Source: a bacterium (GTDB taxonomy: Bacteria > UBA8248 > JACPRG01 > G963555815). From it: DNA of 64,000 nt. Positions 7,785 through 53,478 of this stretch are shown in pieces. Numbering within the stretch: the stretch's first letter is position 1; every line of letters starts with the position of its first letter. The notes beneath the pieces are model-generated. The model saw only the letters and a list, made by a program, of their open reading frames with translations, had not been told where the DNA came from and did no database searches. The translations under genes were made by a program, and so were the position numbers. The stretch spans positions 608,001-672,000 of the forward strand of contig OZ244653.1 in NCBI GenBank assembly GCA_965218795.1. Reading direction: 5' to 3'.

Positions 7785-7786
7785 TG

Positions 7787-39096: not shown

Positions 39097-39245
39097 GACA
39101 TCAGCCAGCGGAAGGAAGCTCGCGAGACCCTTCAGCAGTCGGAGAAAGAGTACCGCACCCTGTTCGAGCAGGCCGGCTCTCATCCTGGATAGGGGCAATG
39201 AAGTCATGAATGTGGACAAGAGCGTATCAGAAAATGCGGGTGAGA
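39097..39245 (+). pseudogene. PAS-domain sensor fragment
   Basis: DISQRKEARETLQQSEKEYRTLFEQAG matches the PAC-PAS linker; frameshifted LILDRGNEVMNVD follows. Confidence 0.6.
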
Positions 39246-39277
39246 TTTCAAGAAGCGGGTGTAATGATAGGGAAAAA

Positions 39278-39354
39278 TGGCGGGGTTGACGGGACTTGAA
39301 CCCGCGACCTCTGGCTTGACAGGCCAGCGTTCTAACCGTCTGAACTACAACCCC
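39278..39354 (-). tRNA. tRNA-Asp(GTC)
   Basis: GGGGTTG...CAACCCC-GCCA; anticodon loop CTGTCAA. Confidence 0.95.
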
Positions 39355-39376
39355 GCCGCGTATCTCTTCATTGGTA

Positions 39377-39452
39377 TGGTGGGCGGAACAGGGCTTGAAC
39401 CTGTGACCTCCGGCTTGTAAGGCCGGCGCTCTTCCAACTGAGCTATCCGCCC
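39377..39452 (-). tRNA. tRNA-Val(TAC)
   Basis: GGGCGGA...TCCGCCC-ACCA; anticodon loop CTTACAA. Confidence 0.95.
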
Positions 39453-39637
39453 CGTTCCTCCGGCCCAATCAATATATGACCACCGGAAAGAGAGCGTCAA
39501 GCTGATTCTTCGAAGGTCCTCGGGTATATCCAGAGTTCTCCTGTCGAATCATTGAATGGACGGAATGTGCGGGAAATTCTAAATTGAGGGCTTAGACATT
39601 CTACGTCCAAACCAGCCTGATAACGGATTCATTCAAT

Positions 39638-40666
39638 TTGATTCAAAATTTCCGCCGTCCAATATTCCAATGGTTGCTCTCAGCGTTCCTCGCAGGATTG
39701 TGGGCGTTGGGGTTGTCCGTTCCTCCGGCTCGGGCCGAACCCGCAAAGGTGCGTGTCGCGCTCGGACCCTCCATCACGACGGACATGATTGGCCGCCACT
39801 TGCTCCGTACGGGTGTCTTGAAGAGGTGGGGGGAGAAGGCGGATGCCGACATCGAGCTCACGGCGAGCAGGAACGCGAACATCCTCCTGGCCCAGAATAA
39901 GGCGGACATTGTCCTGTTGAGCACCATCGACGTAGCCCGGCTGGTACTGAACGATAAGCTGGAAATCGTTATTTGGGGGAAGGAATCAACCTCCTACGAA
40001 TCTTTTTATTCCAAGAGCGGACAGCCGGGGGACCTTCCCCTGGACTTCAAAGGGAAGCGGCTGGTTCATCCAGGCTGGAATACCCGGGGTACGCGTATCG
40101 GTCAGATCCTTCTGAAAAGCTTCTGGGGGCTGGACGCCGGGGCCGACTTCCAGGTCGTTACCGTTCCCTGGCGAATCGGGCCGGAAAAACTCCTTGAGGA
40201 TGAAGCGGATCTCGCCATCAACACCATGCCTTTTGTTCTCAACGGATTGCAGAAGGGGGTTCTCAGGAAAGTCGGGAAGAGCTTTGCCGGGCATTGGGCC
40301 GATTTGCGCGGAAACGGCAGAAGGCTGGGGGGGCTCTTCTGGGTTTCTTGGCAGAGCTGGTTGCAACGGGAGAGAAAAAGGGCGTTTGCGCTGCTGGGTG
40401 CATGGGCCGAAGGCATGCAGTATAGCCATACTGATACAGAGACGTGGGTCCGGGAGTATCTTCCGCTGGTCATGCGCGGGGCCGATAAGGAGAGCGTCCG
40501 ATTTTTCCTGGACTGGGTCCGGAGAGAACAGCCTGTCTACGCTTCTCCCTATCTGTCGGCAGAGGATATCGAAGACGAGAATCAATTTCTGAGGCTCGCG
40601 GTTCAGAGCAAGCTGATCCGCAGGATGCCGGATCGTCCGATTTGGGAGGTGGTCCGGCCGCGATAG
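39638..40666 (+). CDS. ABC transporter substrate-binding protein (NitT/TauT-like, divergent)
   Basis: Signal peptide ARA-E; DFKGKRL; periplasmic binding protein type 2-like pattern. Confidence 0.65.
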   Translation: MIQNFRRPIFQWLLSAFLAGLWALGLSVPPARAEPAKVRVALGPSITTDMIGRHLLRTGVLKRWGEKADADIELTASRNANILLAQNKADIVLLSTIDVARLVLNDKLEIVIWGKESTSYESFYSKSGQPGDLPLDFKGKRLVHPGWNTRGTRIGQILLKSFWGLDAGADFQVVTVPWRIGPEKLLEDEADLAINTMPFVLNGLQKGVLRKVGKSFAGHWADLRGNGRRLGGLFWVSWQSWLQRERKRAFALLGAWAEGMQYSHTDTETWVREYLPLVMRGADKESVRFFLDWVRREQPVYASPYLSAEDIEDENQFLRLAVQSKLIRRMPDRPIWEVVRPR

Positions 40667-40884
40667 GGAAATCGTCACGCTGAGAGCCTTGCTCTGTGAC
40701 ACTTCCATGCCGATATTCGGCCCTGCGGTTGGATTGCAGATTGACCTCCTCCACCCCTTTTGATAGTTTCCAAGTAGTGCCCACTTAAGCAATCCGCGCG
40801 CAAAGAGCAGATCAAGAATAAGCGGGTGCTCGGCCTCGCTCCGAAGGGCTGAGAATTTCCTATTGAATCAAAAGGGAAGAATCG

Positions 40885-42069
40885 ATGAGGGACGTGGTTA
40901 TCGTCGGCGGCGTGAGGACGCCGGGTGCAAAATTCGGCGGGACCCTGAAGGATGCGCCCGTCCCGGAACTGGGCGCCCTGGTGGTCAAGGAAGTCATTGA
41001 CCGGTCGGGAATTGACCCGAAGACGATTGAGGAAGTGATTTTCGGAAACGGCTGGCAGACGGGCGTAGGCCCTAATCCGGCCCGCTTGGTGTCCGTCAAG
41101 GGCGGAGTCCCCGAGAGCGCTCCCGCATACACGGTCAACAAGAGATGTGGTTCCAGCCTCAAAACGATTATTCTCGGGACTCAGGCCATCCGCTCCGGCG
41201 ACGCGGACACTGTCCTCGTCGGAGGGGTTGAAAATACCAGCCGGGTGCCGTTCATCGTTCAAAATGCCCGCTGGGGACTGCGTCAGGGTCATGGGGAGTT
41301 GGTGGATCTGACCCATCAGGACGGCTATGTGTGTGGCCTGGTCGGGGAAATCATGGGTTCCACGGCCGAGACACTGGCCGTTCAATATGCCATCAGCCGA
41401 GATGAACAGGACGATTTTGCTCTTCGGAGTCACGAAAAGGCCCTGGCCGCAATCGAAAAAGGGTATTTTGAGGAGGAGGTCGTACGAGTCCCTTTGAACG
41501 GAAAGAAGAAAGGTCCCGAGAGTTTTGATGTGGACGAGATTCCCAGAGGTGACATATCGCTGGAAAGGCTGGGCAGGCTCAAGCCGATCTTCAAGAAAGA
41601 TGGAACGGTAACGGCGGGCAATGCTTGCGCGCAGTGCGATGCTGCATCGGCTCTCATCCTGATGGCTGGCGAGCGGGCGGCGGAGCTTGGGATCGATCCG
41701 ATGGCGAAGATCGTCGGCTATGGAAGCGCGGGTGTGGACCCGAAGGTCATGGGAATTGGGCCTGTTCCCGCGGCCCAGCAGGCCCTCGAGAAGGCCGGGA
41801 TGACGCTCGAGCAGATGGACCTCATTGAAGTCAATGAGGCCTTTGCCGCGCGAGTGATTGCCGTCGAGCGTGAATTGAAGTGGGACCGGGACCGCGTCAA
41901 CGTGCATGGCGGGGCCATCGCATTGGGGCACCCGGTCGGTGCGACCGGCGGGAAAATCACGGTGACGCTCCTGCACGCGCTGAAACGGTACGACAAAACC
42001 CTTGGGATGGCGACGCTCTGCATCGGGGGCGGGCAGGGAGTGGCCATCATTTTTGAACGACAGAACTGA
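40885..42069 (+). CDS. Acetyl-CoA C-acetyltransferase (thiolase)
   Basis: NKRCGSS, NEAFA, GHPVGATG, LCIGGGQG; TTGACC-N17-TAGTTT upstream. Confidence 0.95.
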   Translation: MRDVVIVGGVRTPGAKFGGTLKDAPVPELGALVVKEVIDRSGIDPKTIEEVIFGNGWQTGVGPNPARLVSVKGGVPESAPAYTVNKRCGSSLKTIILGTQAIRSGDADTVLVGGVENTSRVPFIVQNARWGLRQGHGELVDLTHQDGYVCGLVGEIMGSTAETLAVQYAISRDEQDDFALRSHEKALAAIEKGYFEEEVVRVPLNGKKKGPESFDVDEIPRGDISLERLGRLKPIFKKDGTVTAGNACAQCDAASALILMAGERAAELGIDPMAKIVGYGSAGVDPKVMGIGPVPAAQQALEKAGMTLEQMDLIEVNEAFAARVIAVERELKWDRDRVNVHGGAIALGHPVGATGGKITVTLLHALKRYDKTLGMATLCIGGGQGVAIIFERQN

Positions 42070-42112
42070 GCCGGCCGGTTCTTCCTCTCTTGATTCATAA
42101 AGGACGCGCCGA

Positions 42113-42967
42113 ATGACGGTAAGCCACCTTTTCGTCGCTGGGGCGGGGCAGATGGGCGCGGGAATCGCTCAACTCGCCGCCCAGGCGGGAATCCGGGCGA
42201 CCTTGATGGACGTCAACGAAAAACTGGCCCGCAGCGGCGTCGCACGAATGGAGGAGTCCCTTCAACGCCGGGTCGACAAGGGAAAGATGAGCGGAGAGGA
42301 GAGGGAAGGCATCCTGTCGCGAATCGATGTTGCCGACCGTTTATCGGAGGCGGGCCCCAGTGATTTTGTCATCGAGGCCGTGATCGAGAATATCGAGATC
42401 AAAAAGAAGGTGTTTGCCGATCTGGATGAAGTGACGCACGAAAATGCCGTACTTGCGAGCAACACGACGGCCCTTTCAATCAGCGAAATCGCATCCGCGA
42501 CGAAACGGCCTGAGCGGGTCATCGGGATGCACTTTTTCAATCCGCCCGTTGTCATGAAACTGGTCGAAATCATCCCCGGAATCGCGACGGACTCTCGGGT
42601 CGTGGATGCGACGCGCGAATTGGCCGTGACCCTGGGAAAGGATCCTGTGGTGACGAAAATCGAGACCCCGGCAGGCATTGTCAGCCGGGTTCTCGCGGGA
42701 TTATTGAACGAGGCGGTCCTGGTTTACGAGTCTGGTGTCGCCTCAGTGGAGGATGTCGATAAGGCCATGAAGATGGGCACCAATATGCCTATGGGTCCAC
42801 TGGCCCTGCTCGACCTGATTGGTCTGGATGTCCATTTGGCGAAGATGGAGACTTTACACCGTGAATTGGGCGACTCGCGGTACCGGACGCCCTATCTGGT
42901 TCGGAAGATGGTCAAGGCAGGTCATTTGGGCGTCAAGGCCGGGAGGGGATTCTACGATTATACTTGA
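42113..42967 (+). CDS. 3-hydroxybutyryl-CoA dehydrogenase
   Basis: GAGQMGAGIA, EAVIEN, ASNT, GMHFFNP, PMGPL. Confidence 0.93.
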   Translation: MTVSHLFVAGAGQMGAGIAQLAAQAGIRATLMDVNEKLARSGVARMEESLQRRVDKGKMSGEEREGILSRIDVADRLSEAGPSDFVIEAVIENIEIKKKVFADLDEVTHENAVLASNTTALSISEIASATKRPERVIGMHFFNPPVVMKLVEIIPGIATDSRVVDATRELAVTLGKDPVVTKIETPAGIVSRVLAGLLNEAVLVYESGVASVEDVDKAMKMGTNMPMGPLALLDLIGLDVHLAKMETLHRELGDSRYRTPYLVRKMVKAGHLGVKAGRGFYDYT

Positions 42968-43024
42968 GCCAGCGTCCATAGTTATAAAATAGCAATAATA
43001 ATAGGTATACCAAATAGATATATA

Positions 43025-44173
43025 GTGAATTTTAATCTAACAGATGAACAAATATCAATCCGCGAGGAAGCCCGAACCTTTGTGGATGATGTCCTTGCGC
43101 CCGCCGCTCCTCAGCTCGCACGTGAGCACCGTTTTCCCCATGAGATCCTTGAGCAACTCGCGGAAAAGGGTTATTTGGGGGGACCGATCCCGGAGGAATG
43201 GGGCGGCCGTGGATACGATTACATCACCCACGGCCTCGTGGCGGAGGAGATTGGAAGGGGTTGCTCGTCGATGCGCAGCACATTTTCCGCTCACCTTTCT
43301 CTTTGCACGCTTCCGCTTTATACCTGGGGATCAGAAGAACAAAAAGAACGGTATCTTCGGAAGATGGCGAGCGGTGAATGGCTCGGGTGCATGGGATTGA
43401 CCGAACCGGATGCGGGTAGTGATGTCGCGGGGATGCTCTCCGTTGCAGAACTGAAGGGCGACCACTACGTCCTGACCGGGCGGAAAATGTGGATCAGCAA
43501 CGGGTGCGAGGCCGATTTGGCGCTCATCTTTGCCAAGACCGACAAGGCAAAAGGCGCGCGAGGAATCACGAGTTTCCTGGTGGAGATGGCCTGGGACGGG
43601 TGCTCTGCCGAGGAAATTCACGGAAAACTCGGACTGTGGTCGTCCAATACGGCGGAACTGATGTTCGATCAAGCGAAAATTCCCGCTGGCAACGTCCTGG
43701 GGGAAGTCGGGGCGGGGTTCAAAGTCGCCATGTCCACGTTGGATTTCGGCCGTTATACGGTGGCCGCGGGCTGCGTGGGTCTGGCGCAGGCGTGCCTGGA
43801 TGCAGTGCGCGAGTACGTCGCGGAATCGGGGCCGCCTCTATTGCGGGCGCGGCCGGAGGTTCGAGAAACCATAGGAGAAATGGTCAGGGATATCGAAGCC
43901 GGACGGCTTCTCGTAAGGCGGGTCGGATATCTGAAAAATCTGGAGGTCCGGAACACCCGGGAGACCAGTATCGCGAAATACTACGCAAGCGAATTGGCAA
44001 ACCGGGCTGCGACACACGCTATGCGTGTGATCGGAATGGATGCCAATACGGATAGATACCCCGTTGAGCGATTTTTGAGAGATGCCAGAGTGAACACGCT
44101 GTTCGAAGGGACTTCACAGATTCAGAAATTAATCATCGGGAGTCTCGAGTTGGGAATGCGCGCCGTCAGCTGA
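43025..44173 (+). CDS. Acyl-CoA dehydrogenase with divergent C-terminal FAD contacts
   Basis: GLTEPDAGSD, GRKMWISNG, KLG, FEGTSQIQ. Confidence 0.92.
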   Translation: MNFNLTDEQISIREEARTFVDDVLAPAAPQLAREHRFPHEILEQLAEKGYLGGPIPEEWGGRGYDYITHGLVAEEIGRGCSSMRSTFSAHLSLCTLPLYTWGSEEQKERYLRKMASGEWLGCMGLTEPDAGSDVAGMLSVAELKGDHYVLTGRKMWISNGCEADLALIFAKTDKAKGARGITSFLVEMAWDGCSAEEIHGKLGLWSSNTAELMFDQAKIPAGNVLGEVGAGFKVAMSTLDFGRYTVAAGCVGLAQACLDAVREYVAESGPPLLRARPEVRETIGEMVRDIEAGRLLVRRVGYLKNLEVRNTRETSIAKYYASELANRAATHAMRVIGMDANTDRYPVERFLRDARVNTLFEGTSQIQKLIIGSLELGMRAVS

Positions 44174-45416: not shown

Positions 45417-46160
45417 GTGAGGATTCTCCTCAGTAACGATGACGGTATCGATTCCGCCGGTTTGAAATCCCTGTATGACGCTCTGAGCGAGGATCATCAG
45501 GTTGTGGTCGTCGCTCCTGACAGGGAGAGAAGCGCGGCCGGGCATTCGCTCACGCTCCATCGTCCCCTCCGAGTCCAGGAAGTCAGCCAAGGCTGGTATT
45601 CAGTCGACGGCACGCCGACCGATTGTGTCCACTTGGCGCTGAACGGCCTTCTTTGCGGGTCGCGGCCGGAGATGGTCGTGGCAGGCATCAACATGGGAGC
45701 CAATCTTGGCAGCGATATCACATATTCCGGGACCGTGGCGGCTGCGATCGAAGGCACACTATCCGGCGTGCCGTCGATCGCTGTATCGCTGGCCTCCCGG
45801 GGGCCCTTTGAGTTCGGACCGGCTGCGGAATTGACGGCCAACCTCGTCTCAATTGTTGCGGAAAAGACCCTGCCCGAGGATACCCTATTGAATGTCAACG
45901 TGCCGGATGTTTCAAAGAGGCCGATCCGCGGAGTCCGGGTGACCCGGCAGGGGAAGAGTGTCTGCGGCGAAGCCATCGTCGAAAAGGTAGACCCCCGCGG
46001 CCAGAAGTATTTCTGGATTGGAAGCGGGAAACTCGAATGGACGAAATGCGGCGATACGGATTTGGACGCAGTTCACGAAGGCATCATTTCCATCACCCCC
46101 CTGCATCTGAATTTGACCAATGAAGTCGCCTATCAAGAACTCTTGCAATGGAGTTTTTGA
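45417..46160 (+). CDS. surE: 5'/3'-nucleotidase SurE
   Basis: LSNDDGI, GTPTDCV, GIN.GANLG, YSGTV, ITPL. Confidence 0.96.
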   Translation: MRILLSNDDGIDSAGLKSLYDALSEDHQVVVVAPDRERSAAGHSLTLHRPLRVQEVSQGWYSVDGTPTDCVHLALNGLLCGSRPEMVVAGINMGANLGSDITYSGTVAAAIEGTLSGVPSIAVSLASRGPFEFGPAAELTANLVSIVAEKTLPEDTLLNVNVPDVSKRPIRGVRVTRQGKSVCGEAIVEKVDPRGQKYFWIGSGKLEWTKCGDTDLDAVHEGIISITPLHLNLTNEVAYQELLQWSF

Positions 46161-46214
46161 CTCCGGAGCAGTGAGAGATGCAGGGCGGCATTGATTTTTG
46201 ATTGATTCGGCAGG

Positions 46215-46937
46215 GTGCGCGGAGACCGAATGTTGAGATTCCCGTTTCATACGAACGGCCGGGAGAGGAAATGCAACGGAGAGGATTCCCCCTCTTTTGC
46301 CAGAGAGCGAAACCGAATGGTCGACGACCAAGTCGCCGCGCGCGGGATCGCCGACCCCCGCGTATTGGACGCCATGCGGCGCGTTCCTCGTCATCTGTTC
46401 GTTGAAGAGGCGCTTCAGTCTCGCGCTTACGGCGACCACCCGCTCCCTATTGGAGAAGGGCAGACGATTTCCCAGCCCTTCATCGTGGCCCTGACCTGCC
46501 AGGCCCTCGCCCTGAATGGATCAGAGCGGGTTCTGGAAATCGGAACCGGCTCCGGGTATCAGACGGCCATTCTGGCGGAGTTGGCCGAGAAAGTGTTCTC
46601 CGTCGAGCGGTTGAACTCGCTGGCGAGCGTCGCGCGCGAGCGGCTGGACCGCCTCGGCTATCATAATGTCGCCTGCTGGATTTCGGACGGAAGTCTCGGG
46701 TGGTCCTCCGAGGCGCCGTTTGACGGAATCGCAGTCGCCGCCAGCGCTCCTGGGATCCCACCCCCGCTGAAAGCCCAGCTTGGAGAGAAAGGCCGCCTCG
46801 TATTGCCGGTGGGCGATCAGGAGGAGCAGGCTCTGCTTCGGGTAACCAGGGCCGGAGACCTGTATGAGAGTGTTACGCTGAGCCCCTGTGTCTTTGTCCG
46901 GCTGGTGGGAAGACACGGCTGGACGTCCGGGGACTGA
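46215..46937 (+). CDS. pcm: Protein-L-isoaspartate O-methyltransferase
   Basis: VPRHLFV, GQTISQP, LEIGTGSGYQ; follows surE; start codon uncertain. Confidence 0.95.
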   Translation: MRGDRMLRFPFHTNGRERKCNGEDSPSFARERNRMVDDQVAARGIADPRVLDAMRRVPRHLFVEEALQSRAYGDHPLPIGEGQTISQPFIVALTCQALALNGSERVLEIGTGSGYQTAILAELAEKVFSVERLNSLASVARERLDRLGYHNVACWISDGSLGWSSEAPFDGIAVAASAPGIPPPLKAQLGEKGRLVLPVGDQEEQALLRVTRAGDLYESVTLSPCVFVRLVGRHGWTSGD

Positions 46938-47007
46938 TTTTTCAGCAGGGGTTGGCAAACACGAGGAAGTTTCATTAAATAAAATGGCATTGTCGGCGAG
47001 TGTCGAT

Positions 47008-47084
47008 CGGGGCGTAGCGCAGCCTGGTAGCGCGCTTGCTTCGGGAGCAAGAGGTCAGGAGTTCAAATCTCCTCGCCCCGACCA
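47008..47084 (+). tRNA. tRNA-Pro(CGG)
   Basis: CGGGGCG...CGCCCCG-ACCA; anticodon loop TTCGGGA. Confidence 0.95.
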
Positions 47085-47088
47085 TGGT

Positions 47089-47128
47089 GAAGGGGAACCG
47101 GCTTTTGCGTGTCGGTTCCCCTTCTTTT
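47089..47128 (+). terminator. Rho-independent terminator after tRNA-Pro
   Basis: GAAGGGGAACCG..CGGTTCCCCTTC hairpin followed by TTTT. Confidence 0.75.
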
Positions 47129-47170
47129 CCAGTTCTTCGGATTGTCTGACTTGGATAGCTTCCTGTCAGG

Positions 47171-47200
47171 TTGACAGTCCTTTTGGCCTTCTCCTAGAAT
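47171..47200 (+). promoter_or_regulatory. Sigma70-type promoter for the Gfo/DAHP synthase/AroE operon
   Basis: TTGACA-N18-TAGAAT. Confidence 0.6.
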
Positions 47201-47260
47201 TTCGGGCGTTTTTCAAAGGAAATTTCCGTTTTCTCTATCTCAATCTCAAAGGAAATCCTC

Positions 47261-48283
47261 TTGAAGGTTTTGCAAATCGGGCTGAGCGGATTTGGAAAAA
47301 ATCACGTCGAGGCGTGGGCTCGCATGGGCATGGCGGACTCGCTCTATATCGCCGATTTCAGACCCGAGGCATTCGATCTGCTCGCGCGCTACCAGATCCC
47401 CCCCGAGCAATTTTCAACAGATCTCGAAACGTTTCTGGGCGACGTTGACGTTGTGGATGTCGTCACGCCCTCGGACAGCCATTTCCCATTGTGCCGGACG
47501 GCCATCAAGGCGGGAAAAGACGTCTTCGTTGAGAAGCCGATCACGGTAAAGACGGAGGAGGCCGAAGCCCTCGCCCGGTTGGTGGGGGAGTCCGAAAAGA
47601 TTCTACAGGTAGGATACTATTACCGGTACCATCCGATCTCGCGGTTCATCAAGGAACGAATCGATGCGGGGTCCCTGGGCGAGATTCGCTACATCGCCGG
47701 GAACTTCCTGGGATTCAAGCGGGCGAGGAACGACGTCGGAGTGACCCACACCGATGCCATTCATTTCTTTGATTTGTACAATTGGTTTTTGGGGCCGGCC
47801 GAGACGGTATTGACGTCTGTTGTCCGGGACCATTTCGGACGGGGTCTGGAGGACACCTCGCTGGTGGTGCTCGAGTATCCCGGCGGAGCCATCGGAAGGG
47901 TGGAATCCGGGTACATCCAGCCGGGCCGGTGGATTGAGAAGGTGGTCCCCAAGGCGATGACCACAAAAGATCTCTGGGTCATAGGTTCGGAGGCCGCGAT
48001 CGTGGCGGATTTCGAGGTCGAAACGCTAACGGTGCACAAAGTCCGCCATGAGTTGATCGACGGCACCTGGACGGCGATTCGGGGCGGAGCGGAAACACCG
48101 GTCCTCGGAACGGCCAGTCCGGTCGATCAAATCATTATGGAGCTGGAGGCCTTTATCGAATCCGTCAAGACGCGGAAGCCGCCGGCTGCGGGGGTTGTCA
48201 ACAGCGGTGTGCACTTGGCCAAAATAATGGATGCGGTCTATGAATCCAGCCGGGAACGGCGGGCTATTCCCCTGAATCTCTAG
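47261..48283 (+). CDS. Gfo/Idh/MocA family oxidoreductase
   Basis: IGLSGFG, VFVEKP, VGYYYRYHP, DAIHFFD. Confidence 0.9.
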   Translation: MKVLQIGLSGFGKNHVEAWARMGMADSLYIADFRPEAFDLLARYQIPPEQFSTDLETFLGDVDVVDVVTPSDSHFPLCRTAIKAGKDVFVEKPITVKTEEAEALARLVGESEKILQVGYYYRYHPISRFIKERIDAGSLGEIRYIAGNFLGFKRARNDVGVTHTDAIHFFDLYNWFLGPAETVLTSVVRDHFGRGLEDTSLVVLEYPGGAIGRVESGYIQPGRWIEKVVPKAMTTKDLWVIGSEAAIVADFEVETLTVHKVRHELIDGTWTAIRGGAETPVLGTASPVDQIIMELEAFIESVKTRKPPAAGVVNSGVHLAKIMDAVYESSRERRAIPLNL

Positions 48284-48309
48284 AGTCGATTTGGGAAGGG
48301 GAGCGAGAG

Positions 48310-49173
48310 GTGAAAGACATAACTCAGAAGGATATAGAGAAGAATTTCCCGTTGGTGTCCCGTCGCAACGGCGGCGAGCGGAGTACCGTTCGCGTGGGAG
48401 ACGTGGTGATAGGTGGGAACCGGCTCGTGGTCATGGCGGGTCCCTGCACCATCGAAAATATCGATCAGCTCCGAGACATTGCCCGGCACGTGAAGGGTAG
48501 TGGGGCCGTCCTCCTTCGGGGCGGGGCCTATAAGCCGATGACCTTCCCGTATCGAAATGAAAAAACATTTGAGCTGGGCGAAGATGGATTGGCCCAACTC
48601 CGGCAGGTCCGGGAAGAAGTCGGGTTGCCCGTCGTGACCGAGGTCGTGGACGTTCGGTTGGTGGGGCAGGTGGCCGAGACGGCGGACATGGTTCAGGTCG
48701 GGGCGCGGAACATGCAGAACTTTCCACTGCTCGAAGAACTCGCCCGGTGCGGAAAGCCCGTTCTTCTCAAGCGGCACTTTGGTTGCAGTCTGCGTGATTG
48801 GCTGGGTGCGGCCGAGTACCTCTATCATTTGGGAAACGACCAAGTCGTGCTGTGCGAGCGAGGGATCGTCGCGCCTCATACGCACGAGCCGACGGCACGG
48901 TTCATTGTGGATATCCAGGCGGTACCGGCGGTGCACAAGTACTCCCATCTGCCCATCGTCATCGATCCCAGCCATGCGACGTTCAACCGGGAATTTGTTC
49001 CCTCCATCTCCAAGGCCGCCATCGCCGCGGGGGCTGACGGCTTGATCCTGGAGGTGCATCCGACACCGCAGGAAGCGGCCGTGGACCCACTCCAGGCGCT
49101 CAGCTATGACGTGTTCGACGAGTTGATGAGTACGCTGCGCACCTTGGCCCCGGTGGTAGACAAGTCGCTGTAA
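48310..49173 (+). CDS. Type I-beta DAHP synthase-like PEP-condensing enzyme (no regulatory domain, altered motif)
   Basis: AGPCTIE, RGGAYKPMTFPY, QVGARNMQNF, LCERG, DPSH, EVHP. Confidence 0.88.
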   Translation: MKDITQKDIEKNFPLVSRRNGGERSTVRVGDVVIGGNRLVVMAGPCTIENIDQLRDIARHVKGSGAVLLRGGAYKPMTFPYRNEKTFELGEDGLAQLRQVREEVGLPVVTEVVDVRLVGQVAETADMVQVGARNMQNFPLLEELARCGKPVLLKRHFGCSLRDWLGAAEYLYHLGNDQVVLCERGIVAPHTHEPTARFIVDIQAVPAVHKYSHLPIVIDPSHATFNREFVPSISKAAIAAGADGLILEVHPTPQEAAVDPLQALSYDVFDELMSTLRTLAPVVDKSL

Positions 49174-49197
49174 CCCCTCCGAAAGGAAAGATCCGCA

Positions 49198-50310
49198 ATG
49201 GTCAGCGATCTGGGCGATATCCAGGACTGTATATCCAATCCGCTTCAAAAAGAGGTGGAGTCCATCTCGTATTTTGTCGGAATTGTGGGCGATCGCCCGT
49301 CTCAATACGCCAAAAGCCCGACGATTTGGAACCCGACCCTGAAAAAGTTCGAGTTCGACGCTTTCTACGTCGCCTTCGATGTGGAAGAGGCCAAGCTCTC
49401 GGATCTCCTGCGGGTCTTGAAAGCCCACCCCCAGCTCCTTGGTTTCAACGTGACCGTCCCCTATAAAGTGAAAATTCTTCCCCTGCTGGACGAACTGGAA
49501 CCCAAGGCGGAGCGGATTGGGGCCGTGAACACAGTGATGAGGGAGCCCGATGGCCGCCTCGTGGGCTACAACACCGATGGGCAGGGCGGAATCGACAGCC
49601 TGACCCAGGTTCAGCCCGGGGAAAGCGGGGTGTTCATCTCTGGATTAAAAGGCGTAAAGACATTGTTGATCGGCGCCGGCGGCGCGGCGGCCGCACTGGC
49701 CCATTACATCAATGAATCGAGTGAGGGCGCTCCGTTGAAGATCGCCAATCGAACGAAGGAGACCGCCGAAGCCCTGGCCGATTCAGTCAACGGCGCGGGA
49801 GGGGCGGCTACCGTGGTCTCCGAGTCGGAGATCGAGAACGTTGCTCCGGACGTGGACCTGATCGTCAACGCGACAGTCAAAGGGCAGAGCGGGATCCGCC
49901 AGCTTTCAGGAGGGGTGGCGACTTGCATGGAGCCTTATTCGTCTTTGGCCGGGGCGAACCCCGCACCCGTTCCCGAGCCTAGATCGGACGGCGAGGATCG
50001 GTTTTACGCGGCATGGTGGAAGAACTCGGTTGGGGACGTGGTCGAGAATCAGAGAACTTCCTCCGAACTTGCCTCAAGGATTCCCACCGAAGTACGCTTC
50101 TATGATGCGATTTATTCCCCGCAGGAGACCGTTTTTCTGCGCCATGGCCGGCTCAGCGGGCACCGGACCCTAAACGGCAAGGGGATGAACGTCTGCCAGG
50201 CGGCCGACGGTTTCTTCAACCGAATCATGGCCCGGTATCTTGAAGAGCAAAACCTGAAGAATCAGGAAATCTATACGGCAATTCGGGACTTTATGTATCA
50301 AGTGTGGTAG
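49198..50310 (+). CDS. Shikimate/quinate dehydrogenase-like protein
   Basis: KSP, GFNVTVPYK, GAVNT, YNTDG, GAGGAA, ANRT, DAIYSP. Confidence 0.88.
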   Translation: MVSDLGDIQDCISNPLQKEVESISYFVGIVGDRPSQYAKSPTIWNPTLKKFEFDAFYVAFDVEEAKLSDLLRVLKAHPQLLGFNVTVPYKVKILPLLDELEPKAERIGAVNTVMREPDGRLVGYNTDGQGGIDSLTQVQPGESGVFISGLKGVKTLLIGAGGAAAALAHYINESSEGAPLKIANRTKETAEALADSVNGAGGAATVVSESEIENVAPDVDLIVNATVKGQSGIRQLSGGVATCMEPYSSLAGANPAPVPEPRSDGEDRFYAAWWKNSVGDVVENQRTSSELASRIPTEVRFYDAIYSPQETVFLRHGRLSGHRTLNGKGMNVCQAADGFFNRIMARYLEEQNLKNQEIYTAIRDFMYQVW

Positions 50311-50399
50311 CCGGGGTCTCTACCCCCCCTTGTCAAGCTTCAATTGAGACGTGATTCCGGACCAACATGTCTTTGGAGTGGGGGTCCAGAGAAATCTGC

Positions 50400-50600
50400 C
50401 TCCTCAGTGAGTCCACTTCATATTGCCGCGTCCTGGGAGCACACGAACCGGTTGGAAGCGGATTCGGCCTGTTATCTGCGAGACCAAATCGAATATGCAC
50501 TGGCCATGGGTGTTTTCGGTCGACTTCTGGCAGGACCTTCGTCCAGAGAAAGCTGAAGCGACTGTTCGCCTACCGGCAAAACATTTCTGATCGGGAACTT
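50400..50600 (+). pseudogene. SRPBCC-domain remnant upstream of TIGR01777
   Basis: SWEHTNRL..LRDQIEYALAMG..GRLLAGP, then frameshifted FVQRKLKRLFAYRQ in frame with the downstream gene. Confidence 0.65.
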
Positions 50601-50630
50601 GCGGAACGGCCGGATAGGAGAAACAAGGTC

Positions 50631-51533
50631 ATGAAGGTGCTGGTCACAGGGTCGACGGGACTCGTCGGTTCGACGCTGATTCCATTTCTGGCGACAGAAG
50701 GTCATACGATGACGCGGCTGGTCCGGTCCCGGCCTTCCAGCCCGAATCAGGAAGCAGGCTGGGATCCGGAGAGAGGAGATCTGGATCCCGCCGGACTGGA
50801 GGGACACGATGCCGTTGTTCATCTGGCCGGAGAGAACATCGCGGCTGGGCGGTGGACCCCGGAACGAAAAGAGAAAATTCGTGCGAGCCGGGTCAACGGA
50901 ACACGTCTTCTCTGCGAGGCCCTTGCCGGACTCGACGATCCCCCGAAAGTTTTGGTCTCGGCATCCGCTATCGGATACTACGGTGAGCGAGGCAATGAGG
51001 CGGTGACCGAGGAGAGTACAGCGGGGTCGGGCTTTCTACCGGAAGTCTGTAAAGCATGGGAAGAGGCTGCGCAACCCGCGGCCAATGCTGGGATTCGGGT
51101 GGTCCACGTCAGAATCGGAATCGTCATGAGTCCGGCAGGCGGTGCGCTTGCAAAGATGTTAACTCCATTCAGGATGGGGTTAGGCGGAAAGATTGGAAGC
51201 GGAAAGCAGTATATGAGCTGGATTTCAATCGATGACCTGATTGGTGTCATACATCACGCGATCACATCGGGAGCTCTGATAGGGCCGGTCAACGCAGTAG
51301 CCCCCACACCGGTCAGAAACTCGGAATTCACCCGGATCCTCGGTCGGGTTCTGGGCCGCCCGGCTTTGATCCCGCTCCCGGCATTTGCGGCCAAGATGAT
51401 GTTGGGTGAAATGGCGGACGAGTTGCTTCTGGCCAGCACCCGTGTGGAACCCGGACGGCTGAAAAGCACGGGGTACACATTTCATCATTCCCGCTTGGAA
51501 GAGGCGTTGCGGCATGTCTTGGGTAAGATTTGA
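50631..51533 (+). CDS. TIGR01777 family (YfcH-like) NAD-dependent oxidoreductase
   Basis: VTGSTGLVG, HLAGENI..RWT, SASAIGYYG, FLPEVC.AWE; AGGAG RBS. Confidence 0.92.
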   Translation: MKVLVTGSTGLVGSTLIPFLATEGHTMTRLVRSRPSSPNQEAGWDPERGDLDPAGLEGHDAVVHLAGENIAAGRWTPERKEKIRASRVNGTRLLCEALAGLDDPPKVLVSASAIGYYGERGNEAVTEESTAGSGFLPEVCKAWEEAAQPAANAGIRVVHVRIGIVMSPAGGALAKMLTPFRMGLGGKIGSGKQYMSWISIDDLIGVIHHAITSGALIGPVNAVAPTPVRNSEFTRILGRVLGRPALIPLPAFAAKMMLGEMADELLLASTRVEPGRLKSTGYTFHHSRLEEALRHVLGKI

Positions 51534-51582
51534 TAGGTTTTTCCAACCAACTCATTTCAATATGTGATGATAGGGTGATGCA

Positions 51583-52053
51583 TTGAATGCCTCGACTCGA
51601 TTGATCATCGGTGTCATAGGAGCCAACCAGCCCTCAAATGAAACCTACAGGCTCGCCCAGGAGGTTGGACGCAAGATTGCGGAGCGGGGGGGGACGGTGG
51701 TTTGCGGCGGCCTTGGCGGCGTTATGGAGGCTGCCTGCAAAGGCGCCAAGGAGGCCGGTGGGTTGACCATCGGCATTCTGCCCGGCGAGGAGGCGAAGAC
51801 CGCGAATCCGTATGTGGATATCCCAATCGTTACAGGGATTGGATATGCGCGAAACATCATTCTCGTTCGCACCGCGGAGTCAATCATCGCGATGGATGGG
51901 AGTTACGGGACCCTCTCGGAAATCGCGCACGCGCTTCAGATGGGAAAGCCGGTAATTGGCGTTCGATCTCGAATTGCACCCGCAGATGTGCCGCAGGTGG
52001 GCGATCCGGAGGAGGCTGTCGAACGGGCGTTCGCCGTCTGTGCCGGCCGTTGA
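51583..52053 (+). CDS. TIGR00725 family LOG/DprA-like Rossmann protein
   Basis: CGGLGGVMEAA.KGA, GILPG, ARN, GTLSEIA. Confidence 0.88.
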   Translation: MNASTRLIIGVIGANQPSNETYRLAQEVGRKIAERGGTVVCGGLGGVMEAACKGAKEAGGLTIGILPGEEAKTANPYVDIPIVTGIGYARNIILVRTAESIIAMDGSYGTLSEIAHALQMGKPVIGVRSRIAPADVPQVGDPEEAVERAFAVCAGR

Positions 52054-52101
52054 GCCGAACGGGTCCAAAAAGGCGGTGAAAGGATGCGGGCAAGATCGTC
52101 G

Positions 52102-52917
52102 ATGAAGACAGTCGTTCGATCGCCCTGGGTCGGTTGTGCCCTCCTGTTGCTCCTGGGGGGATGCTCGGTTGCCGGCGTTTTCCGAAAGCCGGGCGCCTAT
52201 CACACGATTCAGCCTGGAGAGACCCTGTATCGGATTGCCCGAACCTACCGGGTGGACCTCGATGAACTGGTCAAGGTCAACCACATCGCGGATTCCCGCC
52301 GTATCGATGTGGGGACGCGGCTATTTATCCCCCGCGCCGTCCGGGTCTTGAAGGTGCCGCCTCGGAGGAAGCCGCCTCGGAGAGAGCGGACCGATCAGGT
52401 GTCGAGGAAGACACCCACGTGGCCGGGACGGCGCAATGTCGAGCGGGAGTCCTCCAGGCGATCGTCTTCCGGATCGAGAGTGCCGTCGACCGCTCTCCGG
52501 ACGGCGAAGCCGCCGAAGCAGGTGGCCAGAGTCACGTTGCCGGCCGAGGTGGATTTTATCTGGCCCGTAAAGGGAAAGATCAGCTCCTTTTACGGAAAAA
52601 GAGGGAAACGAAGGTATCAGGGGATCGATATCGTCGCCGCGACCGGTACGCCCGTGCGTGCGGCTGAAGACGGTTACGTCATTTTCAGCGGCAAGGGGCC
52701 GGGTGGGTACGGTCTTATGGTTATCCTTCGACACCCGAAGGGGTTCCATTCGATTTACGCCCACAATTCGAAAAACATCGTGAAAAAGGGGAGCAAAGTC
52801 AGGCAGGGAGAGGTGATTGCGCTGGTCGGCGAGACTGGTAGAATCGACGGGCCTCACCTTCATTTCGAGATTCGAAATCGGACCAAGCCGAAGGATCCGC
52901 TGTTCTATTTGCCCTGA
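52102..52917 (+). CDS. LysM/M23 lipoprotein (NlpD-like)
   Basis: Lipobox LGGC, LysM domain, WPVKG, QGIDI, YAHN, HLHFEIR. Confidence 0.88.
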   Translation: MKTVVRSPWVGCALLLLLGGCSVAGVFRKPGAYHTIQPGETLYRIARTYRVDLDELVKVNHIADSRRIDVGTRLFIPRAVRVLKVPPRRKPPRRERTDQVSRKTPTWPGRRNVERESSRRSSSGSRVPSTALRTAKPPKQVARVTLPAEVDFIWPVKGKISSFYGKRGKRRYQGIDIVAATGTPVRAAEDGYVIFSGKGPGGYGLMVILRHPKGFHSIYAHNSKNIVKKGSKVRQGEVIALVGETGRIDGPHLHFEIRNRTKPKDPLFYLP

Positions 52918-52953
52918 GGATTTGGTTGTTCGCACCCGGATGGAGGAAATGGA

Positions 52954-53478
52954 ATGCTCAGTGTCGACGATTTGAAGGTGATGATTCGGGATATCCCGGA
53001 TTTTCCAAAGAAGGGCGTCATCTTCAAAGACATCACAACGCTGCTGTCGAACGCGAAGGCCTTCACTACTTCAATCGATCTGATTGGCGATCGATACATT
53101 GACAAGGGGGTGGACCTGGTGGTCGGCGCCGAGGCCCGCGGATTCGTATTTGGCGCGGCCCTGGCATACAAGTTAAACGCCGGGGTCATCATGATCCGAA
53201 AAACCGGTAAGCTCCCCTACAGGACGGTCAAGACACTCTACGAACTCGAATACGGGACCGACGAACTCGAGATCCATGAAGACGCCATCTCCGAAGGAAA
53301 TCGCGTTTTGATTGTAGATGACTTGCTGGCGACAGGTGGTACGGCTTCGGCCTCGGCGGAACTGGTACAAAAACTGAAGGGGGAAGTCGTGGGGTTTGCT
53401 TTTCTGGTTGAGCTTTCTTTCCTGAAAGGAAGGGACCGCCTCAAGGAGCACGAAGTCTTCTCCTTGATTCAATTCTAA
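52954..53478 (+). CDS. apt: Adenine phosphoribosyltransferase
   Basis: IPDFPKKGVIFKDITT, EARGF, LEYGT, VDDLLATGGT. Confidence 0.97.
   Translation: MLSVDDLKVMIRDIPDFPKKGVIFKDITTLLSNAKAFTTSIDLIGDRYIDKGVDLVVGAEARGFVFGAALAYKLNAGVIMIRKTGKLPYRTVKTLYELEYGTDELEIHEDAISEGNRVLIVDDLLATGGTASASAELVQKLKGEVVGFAFLVELSFLKGRDRLKEHEVFSLIQF

Follow-up and report, generated by a model that had tools for sequence, protein, structure and literature searches.

Among described systems, the closest counterparts of the locus reported here include the type I-beta 3-deoxy-7-phosphoheptulonate (DAHP) synthases (DAHPS), KDO8P synthase (KDO8PS), and the aldolases of the NeuB, PseI, and LegI pathways. In the latter, phosphoenolpyruvate (PEP) is condensed with an unphosphorylated sugar and the product is directly activated with CMP (NeuA/PseF). 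KDO8PS, with its KANRS motif, is a precedent for a shifted arginine, and a Cys-to-Asn switch at the metal site is known from functional non-metallo members of this family. The rifamycin cluster brings together an oxidoreductase of the Gfo type with a DAHPS and an AroE-like enzyme. For DAHPS, PMC6362186 gives Cys/His/Glu/Asp as the metal ligands, the equivalents of Arg70, Lys75, Arg133, Lys154, and Arg184 as the PEP ligands, and the Arg and Thr of KPRT as the ligands of erythrose-4-phosphate (E4P).

The locus lies in a 64,000-nucleotide stretch of a bacterial contig, referred to here as the window. Its three genes probably form one half of a divided cassette, the half that makes and tailors the sugar; the product would be a Kdo-like 3-deoxy-2-ulosonic acid, activated with CMP and destined for a cell-surface glycoconjugate. 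The initial annotation regarded the locus as its best candidate for an undescribed pathway, and we found no publication on it.

Organization of the locus

The three genes (47261-50310, hereafter the trio) encode a Gfo/Idh/MocA protein, a DAHPS-like protein, and an AroE-like protein, and all three open reading frames of the initial annotation were recovered on the + strand (Table 1). The Gfo gene starts with TTG, and the purine-rich stretch AAAGGAAA lies about 5 nt 5' of this start. The trio had been credited with its own promoter, and a near-consensus site is indeed found about 60 nt 5' of the first gene; it is a consensus match, not functional proof, and the best of four promoter-like sites that the pattern scan returned for the region, where 1.8 ± 1.3 were expected. 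The hairpin upstream of it, which is absent from the pattern-scan list because its loop exceeds the permitted length, is likely a terminator dividing the trio from the upstream surE-pcm-tRNA genes.

Table 1. Positions of the features discussed (window coordinates, except for the partner locus)
Feature	Position	Strand	Basis
tRNA-Pro, upstream of the hairpin	47008-47084		
Hairpin GGGGAACCG...CGGTTCCCC with T-rich tail	47092..47130	+	direct reading
Sigma-70-like promoter match, TTGACA-18 nt-TAGAAT, 11/12	47171..47200	+	consensus match
Gfo/Idh/MocA NAD(P)-dependent sugar oxidoreductase, 340 aa	47261..48283	+	Pfam
Type I-beta DAHPS-fold PEP aldolase paralog (D-type), 287 aa	48310..49173	+	HMM, tree, AlphaFold
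KPMTFPY motif, in place of KPRTSPY, β2-α2 loop	48532..48552	+	sequence
AroE-family oxidoreductase (shikimate/quinate dehydrogenase fold), 370 aa	49198..50310	+	HMM
Partner locus: NeuB-like, small GT2, CT1, CT2, GT30 Kdo-transferase paralog, AsnB-like amidotransferase	G000:C1:4059569-4066296		

Housekeeping genes flank the trio, both here and in the four most closely related genomes (surE, pcm, and tRNA-Pro on one side, then yfcH, a SLOG protein gene, nlpD, and apt), and by synteny in four relatives the trio alone is the conserved unit. No cytidylyltransferase or glycosyltransferase lies beside it in the window neighborhood or in the four closest relatives.

The DAHPS-like protein and its clade

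The DAHPS-like protein (RGGAYKPMTFPY) matches DAHP_synth_1 (PF00793) with 199.9 bits. It scores above the NCBIfam cutoffs for DAHPS (NF006421, 344.6 versus 335; TIGR01361, 295.9 versus 267.75) and below those for KDO8PS (NF003543, 104.8 versus 242; TIGR01362, 103.9 versus 314), and its match to the NeuB-type family PF03102 is only partial (24.5 bits, residues 85 to 181), with no SAF domain found by Pfam. The protein is 44 to 50% identical to the type I-beta enzymes of A. pernix (1VS1), T. maritima (1RZM), and P. furiosus (1ZCO), and it has the same metal and PEP ligands. It consists of the catalytic domain alone, as do the enzymes of A. pernix and P. furiosus; as first read, it has no N-terminal regulatory domain, and its length is 287 residues, compared with 338 for the canonical enzyme of the same genome. 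The metal ligands, including Cys46, and all five PEP ligand equivalents are present, and the GPC, DPSH, and EVH motifs and the LKRHFG and AVDPLQ sequences noted at the outset were all found in the protein.

The replacement of KPRTS by KPMTF is also as first read, with residues K75-Y81 mapping exactly to the motif listed in Table 1. KPMTFPY is followed by a three-residue insertion that carries a clade-conserved arginine, Arg82. Compared with type I-beta DAHPS, the motif-bearing proteins (D-type) present KP(L/M)TF and the three-residue insertion instead of KPRTS, ERGIxAPHTH instead of ERGI-RTF, KRH instead of KRG, DPSHxxF instead of DPSHxxG, and VDP instead of SDG. The substitution is conserved in relatives, given that KP[LM]TFP occurs in 120 of the 120 best database matches (103 with Leu and 17 with Met), and is therefore not due to chance. 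A tree of 176 sequences, comprising 95 D-type proteins, 78 canonical type I-beta DAHPS, and the KPTTY variant, and rooted with KDO8PS, shows the 95 motif-bearing tips as monophyletic and nested within type I-beta DAHPS. The node that joins the D-type clade to its sister KPTTY clade has a support of 0.99, whereas the D-type clade by itself reaches only 0.52.

The Arg and Ser of KPRTS are found in all 78 canonical sequences and in none of the 95 D-type sequences, and about 10 further changes mark the clade. In the comparison of these two sets, Arg77 is replaced by Leu (91 of the 95) or Met (4), Ser79 by Phe (95), Gly156 by His (84), Arg190 by His (93), Phe192 by His (93), Asn198 by Phe (84), Gly225 by Phe (93), and Gly260 by Pro (92), while Arg82 (88) and Arg162 (93) are new. 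Arg70, Lys75, Arg133, Lys154, Arg184, His222, Glu248, and Asp259 are kept. Overall, the four metal and five PEP ligands are present in 83 to 95 of the 95 sequences, with the metal cysteine site occupied by Cys in 20 and by Asn in 74; the Cys-to-Asn switch characterizes subclade A, and the clade is split into metallo and Asn forms as KDO8PS is. The AlphaFold model of the DAHPS-like protein (pLDDT of 92.2, pTM of 0.91) places all of the changed positions in the loops after β2, β5, β6, β7, or β8, which form the catalytic face. Its best structural match in Foldseek is the A. pernix DAHPS 1VS1 (target-normalized TM score of 0.93 to 0.94, 50% identity), and the matches listed include C11N KDO8PS structures.

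With the metal and PEP ligands kept and the E4P-binding arginine lost, a PEP acceptor other than E4P, as originally suggested, is the natural inference. Since the pocket has gained Arg82, Arg162, His156, His190, and His192, this acceptor may keep an anionic group. Carriers of D-type genes comprise metagenome-assembled genomes (MAGs) labeled Nitrospinota and Tectomicrobia, Nitrospira, Acidobacteriota, and one actinobacterial MAG.

The two dehydrogenases

The Gfo protein contains the N- and C-terminal domains of its family (PF01408, PF02894, and PF22725). Its best NCBIfam matches fall far under the cutoffs (UDP-GlcNAc 3-dehydrogenase, 90 versus 450; IolG, 79 versus 355), and the nearest solved structures are dehydrogenases of inositol and sugar ring hydroxyls. 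Orthologs with 78 to 85% identity lie directly 5' of the DAHPS-like gene in four other genomes (G001, G002, G003, and G006).

The AroE-like protein presents the Shikimate_dh_N and Shikimate_DH domains. Among 53 homologs, each encoded beside a D-type gene, Lys90 and Asp127 of the catalytic pair are kept in 96 to 100%, as are Asn111, Tyr306, and Gln334, and the first Ser of the HSxSP motif is Ala in 83%. The protein retains the catalytic Lys and Asp of AroE and YdiB, their NADP-type NRT motif, and their Tyr and Gln near the C terminus. It differs from them in this Ala, in some 65 extra residues inserted between positions ~230 and ~294, and in its TIGR00507 (aroE) score of 170 bits, under the cutoff of 200.2. 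Judged by sequence, it is a member of the AroE family fold and not an aroE equivalog. The family also includes the 5-ketofructose reductase 7COK, which is among the structure matches listed, and is therefore able to act on keto-sugars.

Canonical aromatic and Kdo genes

A separate canonical DAHPS with KPRTS (338 aa, C1:4143343) is encoded about 5 kb from a canonical aroE (252 bits). This, together with the clade-wide substitution, identifies the D-type gene as a conserved paralog and not the housekeeping DAHPS. The genome also encodes a KDO8PS (KdsA) that carries KANRS, and its own KdsB and WaaA. DHQ synthase is present in a single copy, 1.7 Mb from the trio, whose neighbors are not aro genes. 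Since canonical DAHPS, KDO8PS, and aroE are all encoded separately and DHQ synthase only once, the trio does not belong to the shikimate pathway. The label "shikimate-like operon" that it had received finds no support, given the distance of the one DHQ synthase and the CMP-sugar cytidylyltransferases, glycosyltransferases, and NeuB-like gene that adjoin D-type genes elsewhere.

Neighborhoods of D-type genes and the partner locus

Neighbors within 9 kb were counted in a survey of 121 loci, 101 of which contain a D-type gene. According to a crude gene caller, which yielded at least one antisense artifact, and to tblastn with the proteins of this genome, which under-detects distant homologs, these 101 loci include an AroE-like gene in 59 cases, a CT1/CT2-like cytidylyltransferase in 52, Gfo in 42, a small GT2 in 32, AsnB in 12, and a NeuB-like gene in 11. 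A cytidylyltransferase is found in 13 of the 13 metagenome loci whose two flanks each span 4 kb or more. Pfam confirmed CTP_transf_3, GT2, NeuB+SAF, FMN_dh, and other neighbors, and no HAD or KdsC-like phosphatase occurs among the annotated recurrent neighbor families, which cover part of the clusters. In the closest subclade, the gene orders are UGDH-Gfo-D-AroE-like-NeuB-like-GT2 (locus L168), CT-CT-D-AroE-like-NeuB-like (L009), and D-CT fusion-GT30-AsnB (L240), the last with KduI/IolB-type and xylose-isomerase-like uronate enzymes adjoining the D-type gene. In L165, a GT2 gene (L165_4) lies directly 5' of Gfo-D-AroE-like.

The partner locus of this genome (Table 1) is 3.4 Mb from the trio, and its genes are tightly packed on one strand. 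Its GT2 is 58% identical to L165_4, and the best NCBIfam match of CT1 is PseF (91 bits versus a cutoff of 205.7). Orthologs of partner-locus genes are joined to the subclade in L168, L009, L165, L210, and L240, and from these neighborhoods in other lineages the cassette of this genome appears to be split into two loci. The NeuB-like protein scores 206.5 against the NeuB cutoff of 399.65 and lacks residues that PseI and SpsE conserve: in the alignment, their Lys, Lys, Glu, and His are replaced by Asn, Val, Asn, and Pro. The NeuB-like protein is therefore degenerate and probably does not serve as the working PEP aldolase.

With an identity threshold of 65%, the CT1 locus is found in 7 of the 51 genomes of the phylum, which are exactly the seven of one family (f1), and all seven have a D-type or KPTTY gene beside pcm; as they are close kin, this co-occurrence represents roughly one event. 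Two genomes, G004 and G005, contain the partner locus and the KPTTY sister variant without a Gfo or AroE-like ortholog, showing that the two dehydrogenases are not obligatory partners of the locus. This gene content suggests that tailoring roles for both enzymes fit better than the earlier proposal that the Gfo protein makes the aldehyde.

Proposed function and alternatives

The reaction, the sequence of steps, the connection of the two loci, and where the product ends up are inferred as follows. The DAHPS-like enzyme would catalyze the metal-dependent addition of PEP to an aldehyde to give a 3-deoxy-2-keto acid, and its rebuilt acceptor pocket would take an aldose other than E4P. The Gfo/Idh/MocA and AroE-like enzymes would then act on hydroxyls of the sugar ring, oxidizing and reducing them in either the substrate or the product; the pyranose form of a 3-deoxy-ulosonate resembles quinate and would suit an AroE-type site. 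Activation and transfer would be supplied by the partner locus. The product had been proposed to be an unusual ulosonate or a carbocycle. The cytidylyltransferase, glycosyltransferase, and NeuB-like neighbors in other lineages point to a CMP-activated ulosonic acid and a surface glycan, whereas the carbocycle fares poorly with a single, distant DHQ synthase, so that an ulosonate is the more likely product.

The proposed logic of the cassette is that of the Kdo pathway: both would combine a PEP aldolase from one superfamily with a cytidylyltransferase of the CTP_transf_3 type and a transferase of family GT30. The cassette differs in that the D-type clade falls within DAHPS rather than KDO8PS and lacks KANRS, in that no KdsC-like phosphatase was seen among the annotated neighbor families, and in the addition of the Gfo, AroE-like, and NeuB-like proteins, GT2, and a second cytidylyltransferase. 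The logic also resembles that of the NeuB-type pathways, to which the best match of CT1 belongs, except that the proposed working aldolase has the DAHPS and not the NeuB fold.

The distance of 3.4 Mb from the cytidylyltransferase locus, the promoter-like site of the trio and the terminator-like hairpin beside it, the status of the trio as the sole conserved unit in four relatives, and the presence of the cytidylyltransferase locus without Gfo or AroE-like genes in G004 and G005 could instead indicate a self-contained pathway for a soluble small molecule. Its product might be a sugar acid, a compound resembling an osmolyte, or the precursor of a secondary metabolite, and in this genome the pathway would have no functional tie to the NeuB-like/CT/GT30 locus. 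We consider this unlikely in view of the physical linkage of the subclade to partner-locus orthologs in five loci, the cytidylyltransferase in every well-flanked locus, and the D-type or sister gene beside pcm in each f1 genome with the cytidylyltransferase locus.

It is quite unlikely that a sugar phosphate or another anionic aldose remains the acceptor, bound at a shifted position, which would make the enzyme a new 3-deoxy-ulosonate-phosphate synthase followed by a phosphatase before CMP activation. Arg82, Arg162, His156, His190, and His192 do replace neutral or absent residues, and KDO8PS sets the precedent of a shifted Arg, but the bulky hydrophobic residues (Leu/Met, Phe, and Phe for Gly225 and Asn198) suggest that the old phosphate pocket is filled, and the annotated part of the clusters revealed no recurrent HAD or KdsC-like phosphatase.

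A bolder reading is a long shot: PEP would react with an aldehydo-uronic acid, for instance a tetruronic or hexuronic acid, to give a Dha-type 3-deoxy-2-ulosaric (dicarboxylic) acid; the AsnB-like enzyme might amidate one of the two carboxyls, and CMP activation and transfer by the GT30 paralog would follow. It is put forward because phosphate ligands are lost while the five Arg and His residues are gained, so that the pocket may bind a carboxylate. Hints are the UDP-glucose 6-dehydrogenase directly 5' of the trio in L168, the uronate enzymes of L240, and the recurrence of AsnB-like genes in the cassette. Plant cell-wall reviews (PMC3355719 and PMC12168206) count the enzymes that make Dha and activate it among those not yet identified.

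A true but unregulated DAHPS isozyme serving a second shikimate or aminoshikimate branch, with the AroE-like protein as a dehydroshikimate/quinate dehydrogenase and the Gfo protein resembling RifL (AHBA), is very improbable. The DAHPS cutoffs are passed, the fold and ligands for metal and PEP are intact, the Lys/Asp pair of the AroE-like protein is kept, and the rifamycin cluster has the same three enzyme types. Against this, the arginine that binds E4P (PMC6362186), kept in 78 of 78 canonical sequences, is lost clade-wide, the one DHQ synthase is far from the trio, and the recurrent neighbors include nucleotide-sugar and glycan genes but no aro, AHBA-synthase, or cyclase genes. That the DAHPS-like protein is a catalytically dead pseudoenzyme or binding subunit is barely credible despite the loss of the canonical substrate ligands and the clearly degenerate NeuB-like protein of the cassette, given the retention of metal and PEP ligands across the clade, a Cys-to-Asn switch like that of functional non-metallo KDO8PS, and a confident, well-folded model.

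Implications

Database names for thousands of these proteins are "3-deoxy-7-phosphoheptulonate synthase" and "shikimate dehydrogenase," and genomes with D-type and AroE-like genes are consequently mis-scored as holding extra aromatic-pathway genes. If the proposed Kdo-like acid cassette is correct, the D-type clade would be a third functional branch of the DAHPS/KDO8PS superfamily, with its own acceptor pocket and both metallo and non-metallo forms, and would feed a CMP-sugar pathway that spans several phyla. It would also offer a natural experiment on the evolution of acceptor specificity in PEP aldolases. The KPTTY variant of close relatives, without the two dehydrogenases, helps to separate core from tailoring steps. 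For bacterial surface chemistry, the proposed pathway would add a new acidic sugar and a defined set of enzymes for making it.

Genes and genomic context of the trio

The trio comprises three co-directional genes, separated by 26 and 24 nt, for a Gfo/Idh/MocA oxidoreductase, a type I-beta DAHP synthase (DAHPS)-like protein, and an AroE-like protein. The KPMTFPY motif quoted in the initial annotation for the second protein is exact, with residues 70 to 81 reading RGGAYKPMTFPY and K75 to Y81 corresponding to positions 48532 to 48552; proteins with the KP[LM]TFP motif are here called D-type. The 370-aa AroE-like protein did not reach the NCBIfam aroE cutoff (170 versus 200.2). The genes downstream encode a TIGR01777/yfcH-type protein, a TIGR00725 SLOG protein, NlpD, and Apt. 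Four relatives from the same family (G003, G001, G002, and G006; 78 to 84% identity) have the trio in synteny, and because G006 lacks yfcH next to it, the trio is taken as the conserved unit and the yfcH and SLOG genes were rejected as members.

The yfcH open reading frame (50367 to 51533) is open over 388 aa, with family matches from residue 89 (MKVLVTGSTG) onward; judging from this pattern, its true start is probably near 50631, which would leave a gap of ~320 nt behind the AroE-like gene. Together with yfcH and the SLOG gene, the trio is bordered by pcm/tRNA-Pro on one side and by nlpD-apt on the other (45417 to 53478); in many proteobacteria, surE, pcm, and nlpD form an uninterrupted cluster at the corresponding position. 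The position of the block with respect to surE-pcm differs in G001 and G002, where it has been rearranged.

The source genome is one 5.17-Mb contig, of which the window spans C1:608001-672000. It contains three PF00793 genes, as follows: a canonical DAHPS of 338 aa with an N-terminal domain and the motif GGAFKPRTSPYSFQGLG, a KDO8P synthase with the motif KANRSS, and the window gene, which is thus not the sole DAHPS. About 5 kb separates the canonical DAHPS from a canonical aroE (252 bits). Since the one DHQ synthase of the genome is at 2.34 Mb, where it adjoins a type II dehydroquinase (the second dehydroquinase is at 5.08 Mb), a parallel carbocycle route would have no cyclase of its own. This gene content sets the trio apart from the shikimate pathway, and the earlier description of a shikimate-like operon with a possible carbocycle product is not supported.

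Coordinates and arrangement of features in the window, the second locus, and related loci (D, D-type gene; CT, cytidylyltransferase; L numbers, loci)
Feature	Location	Strand	Description
tRNA-Pro(CGG)	47008-47084		Upstream of trio, with surE and pcm
Hairpin with T-rich tail	47092-47130		3' of tRNA-Pro; read from sequence
Promoter-like match TTGACA-18-TAGAAT	47171-47200		5' of trio; consensus match
Gfo/Idh/MocA ORF	47261-48283	+	340 aa; Pfam and NCBIfam
DAHP_synth_1 ORF	48310-49173	+	287 aa; Pfam and NCBIfam
Shikimate-dehydrogenase-family ORF	49198-50310	+	370 aa; Pfam and NCBIfam
Second locus	C1:4059569-4066296 (L247:7570-14297)	+	Compact block
NeuB-like	Second locus	+	340 aa
GT2	Second locus	+	232 aa; overlaps NeuB-like stop codon
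CT1	Second locus	+	252 aa; CTP_transf_3
CT2	Second locus	+	245 aa; CTP_transf_3
GT30 Kdo-transferase paralog	Second locus	+	455 aa; 96.7 bits versus 204.6 for the genome's canonical WaaA
AsnB-like amidotransferase	Second locus	+	656 aa
Lone DAHPS paralog	L256 (G004:C1:1252000-1266000) ~6903-7739	-	GGAYKPTTYPVKFQGLEEEGL (Arg to Thr, Ser to Tyr)
Lone DAHPS paralog	L257 (G005:C2) ~6957-7793		GGAYKPTTYPVKFQGLEEEGL; next to pcm
Locus of window's subclade	L168		UGDH-Gfo-D-AroE-like-NeuB-like-GT2; UDP-glucose 6-dehydrogenase at 6457-7884
Locus of window's subclade	L009		CT-CT-D-AroE-like-NeuB-like
Locus of window's subclade	L210		Probable AroE-like fusion-CT (53%)-D
Locus of window's subclade	L240		KduI/IolB-like, xylose-isomerase-like, D, CT fusion, GT30 (33%), AsnB

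Phylogeny of D-type proteins

Conservation of the motif in homologs, a point left to check by the initial annotation, was confirmed: KP[LM]TFP is fixed in the 120 best database matches (62 to 100% identity, mostly 287 aa), with Leu in 103 and Met in 17. These come from metagenome-assembled genomes labeled Nitrospinota, Tectomicrobia, Nitrospirota, and Acidobacteria and from one Nitrospira strain. Among the matches, P0039, from a Nitrospira isolate, has 66% identity. In a protein scan, species genomes gave KPR(T/S)S at 77 of 80 loci, with L009 (Acidobacteriota, 60% identity) and L010 (Ilumatobacteraceae, 52%) as the only D-type loci. Few D-type proteins were among the best 150 matches in a representative library at 50% clustering (P0121, P0124, P0127, P0128, P0138, P0165, and P0168-like variants), a result that consists of variant motifs and is not a measure of clade size. 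The ESM Atlas search returned DAHPS-named clusters only.

A single FastTree run on 176 sequences (95 D-type, 78 canonical, 2 with the variant motif KPTTY, and the genome's KDO8P synthase as the root), in which the canonical loci of the species-genome scan were reused as the outgroup, placed the D-type tips as monophyletic with a support of 0.52. When the KPTTY pair is included, the resulting clade (0.99) is nested within type I-beta DAHPS. The D-type proteins include two subclades, A with 74 tips (0.999) and B with 19 tips (0.94), the window protein belonging to B.

Neighborhoods and the second locus

A degenerate DNA pattern for [FY]KP[LMIF]TFPY retrieved 119 metagenome stretches, 107 of them with a motif-bearing ORF. 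Neighbors, from home-made gene calls using a G1-G2 codon-position score, were clustered and then annotated with Pfam; they include CTP_transf_3 cytidylyltransferases, GT2-cytidylyltransferase fusions, small GT2, FMN_dh, and NAD epimerase/dehydratases, as well as radical-SAM/SPASM, NeuB+SAF, enolase-like, AsnB-like, and DegT proteins, ABC exporters, and UDP-glucose dehydrogenase. The count based on these calls (23/28) was redone by tblastn of the genome's proteins on raw DNA, independent of gene calling, which located a D-type gene in 101 of 121 loci. Within 9 kb of it were AroE-like (59 loci), CT1/CT2-like (52), Gfo (42), small GT2 (32), AsnB (12), NeuB-like (11), and GT30 (1) matches, counted on mostly short contigs where distant homologs are underdetected. 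Where 4 kb or more of sequence flanks the D-type gene on each side (13 loci), a cytidylyltransferase is present in every case, alongside AroE-like, Gfo, and GT2 (9 each) and NeuB-like (7) genes.

Several of these loci have further genes beside the D-type gene. L240:8898-10493 encodes a KduI/IolB-family isomerase and a xylose-isomerase-like TIM barrel, and L129:4798-5286 encodes an APS-kinase-like P-loop protein; the neighbors in L240, L129, and L168 give a hint of substrates that are of the uronate type or modified in some other way. Very long ORFs with AroE-like best matches adjoin D-type genes at L210:6492-9866 (1,125 aa) and L222:4234-6423 (730 aa), and these are probably fusions of AroE-like with other cassette enzymes. 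In the window, a beta-oxidation-type block upstream of surE (37784 to 44173) starts with an FMN-dependent alpha-hydroxy-acid dehydrogenase (37784 to 38860; 351 bits), followed by thiolase, 3-hydroxyacyl-CoA dehydrogenase, and acyl-CoA dehydrogenase. The first of these was rejected as a partner of the trio, as it is 28.6% identical to the FMN_dh of subclade A cassettes and the beta-oxidation genes intervene.

A genome search with the cassette neighbor proteins located a second locus 3.4 Mb from the trio, with MurJ-like, PMT_2, and epimerase/dehydratase genes on its flanks. Its GT2 shares 58% identity with L165_4, encoded directly upstream of Gfo-D-AroE-like in locus L165. The second locus is likely the partner locus of the trio. 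An assignment of L165_4 as a CT1 orthologue was withdrawn, as it matches this GT2, and an antisense ORF (unk278; L247:8613-9446, minus strand) was discarded, the true gene there being the GT2 on the plus strand. The NeuB-like protein, aligned with SpsE/PseI, has Asn, Val, Asn, and Pro in place of conserved Lys, Lys, Glu, and His, positions that we take to be catalytic from the literature on Neisseria meningitidis NeuB, and it scores 206.5 against a NeuB cutoff of 399.65. Since it is degenerate at conserved positions and below the cutoff, the D-type enzyme is likelier to be the working aldolase of the cassette. A separate region of the genome (C1, ~4510000 to 4532000) has two NeuB-like matches, a CTP_transf_3 gene (4513899), a DegT aminotransferase, an epimerase/dehydratase, and several AsnB-like genes and has the look of a classical nonulosonic acid locus of the pseudaminic/legionaminic type.

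Probably, as these arrangements suggest, a cassette for a CMP-activated 3-deoxy-2-ulosonic acid is split in this genome, and the trio is the half that forms the sugar. As for the neighborhood conservation that the initial annotation proposed to test, the gene order persists in the four relatives and D-type genes elsewhere lie among glycan and CMP-sugar genes, but no nucleotide-sugar genes were found near the trio in G003, G001, G002, and G006. A stand-alone pathway to a soluble metabolite in the source genome, to which the trio's isolation in these relatives would be congenial and the consistent cytidylyltransferases of well-flanked loci would not, is rather unlikely.

Active site of the D-type enzyme

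Comparison of 95 D-type with 78 canonical aligned proteins showed that Arg77 is replaced by Leu (91/95) or Met (4/95), and Ser79, which follows the Thr of the motif and which we take to be phosphate binding as well, by Phe in all 95. Arg82 lies on a three-residue insertion (88/95), and Arg162 is fixed (93/95). Gly156 is changed to His (84/95), Asn198 to Phe (84/95), Gly225 to Phe (93/95), and Gly260 to Pro (92/95), while ERGI-RTF becomes ERGIxAPHTH, with His for both Arg190 and Phe192 (93/95 each). Arg70, Lys75, Arg133, Lys154, Arg184, His222, and Asp259 are unchanged, and Glu248 is Glu in 83 and Asp in 10. As recounted in PMC6362186 for a characterized type I-beta enzyme, the equivalents of these kept residues are the PEP and metal ligands, and the Arg and Thr of KPRT are ligands of erythrose-4-phosphate; the retention of metal and PEP ligands proposed initially is borne out for the window protein.

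In the AlphaFold model of the 287-aa protein (pLDDT 92.2, pTM 0.91), whose least confident part is the motif-bearing beta2-alpha2 loop (66-70), every changed position lies in the loop after beta2, beta5, beta6, beta7, or beta8, that is, on the catalytic face. The best Foldseek matches are the DAHPS of Aeropyrum pernix, Thermotoga maritima, and Pyrococcus furiosus. The metal-binding Cys46 (GPC; 48445 to 48447) is Cys in 78/78 canonical proteins and in 20/95 D-type proteins, including that of the window (subclade B), and Asn in 74/95, all of subclade A. A Cys/Asn change also separates metallo from nonmetallo KDO8P synthases, a division mirrored by the D-type clade, and C11N structures are among the structural matches.

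Taken together, because the PEP and metal residues are kept and the catalytic-face loops are changed, the PEP chemistry appears to be preserved and the acceptor site rebuilt. In this site, bulky hydrophobic residues stand where the phosphate ligands were, and several basic residues are new. That the acceptor has remained phosphorylated or otherwise anionic, and is held by the new basic residues in spite of the lost ligands, is unlikely. Less probable still is binding of a carboxylate by the basic site, with a Dha-type ulosaric acid as the product; plant reviews list the biosynthesis of Dha as unknown (PMC3355719 and PMC12168206). The 287-aa protein clears two NCBIfam DAHPS cutoffs (344.6 versus 335; 295.9 versus 267.75), and the named proteins among the 120 best matches are called DAHP synthase; set beside the rebuilt acceptor site and the separate canonical enzyme, a true DAHPS isozyme is nevertheless very improbable. 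A dead enzyme, with the PEP and metal ligands so widely kept, can practically be dismissed.

Partner dehydrogenases and distribution

The catalytic residues Lys90 (100%) and Asp127 (98%) are kept among 53 AroE-like homologs adjoining D-type genes, as are Asn111, Tyr306, and Gln334 (96 to 98%). In 83%, Ala replaces the leading Ser of HSxSP, with Arg or Lys next in sequence, and Trp44 is conserved in 94%. The window protein has ~65 extra residues between about 230 and 294. Keto-sugars are plausible substrates because the family includes 5-ketofructose reductase (7COK), and a 3-deoxy-ulosonate pyranose might act as a quinate mimic. The Gfo protein is distantly similar to ring-hydroxyl sugar and inositol dehydrogenases.

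Within the 51 genomes of the phylum, D-type genes (at least 78% identity) occur in 5 and CT1 orthologues (at least 65%) in 7, the latter being all seven members of family f1; as these are close kin, the profile amounts to about one evolutionary observation. The f1 genomes without the trio (G004 and G005; 2.1 Mb) have a lone paralog adjoining pcm that reads GGAYKPTTYPVKFQGL and is sister to the KP(L/M)TF clade (0.99). Gfo and AroE-like orthologues were not found in these two genomes, and the NeuB-like/GT2/CT1/CT2/GT30/AsnB locus is intact in the small-genome relatives (L258). Because G004 and G005 keep the second locus and the sister aldolase without Gfo and AroE-like, the profile suggests a core role for the aldolase alongside the second locus and a tailoring role for the two dehydrogenases.

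A search of open-access papers and preprints found no publication describing the cassette. The available portion of the SugarBase preprint (10.64898/2026.04.20.719630) has no mention of DAHPS, and its supplement tabulates unassigned CMP-sugars that could bear on the product. In the split cassette proposed here, a remodeled DAHPS-type aldolase would supply a 3-deoxy-2-ulosonic acid, which would then be CMP activated, the acceptor and the order of steps being presumed. The logic of such a cassette would be like that of the Kdo and NeuB pathways, with the difference that it would be built on a remodeled DAHPS.
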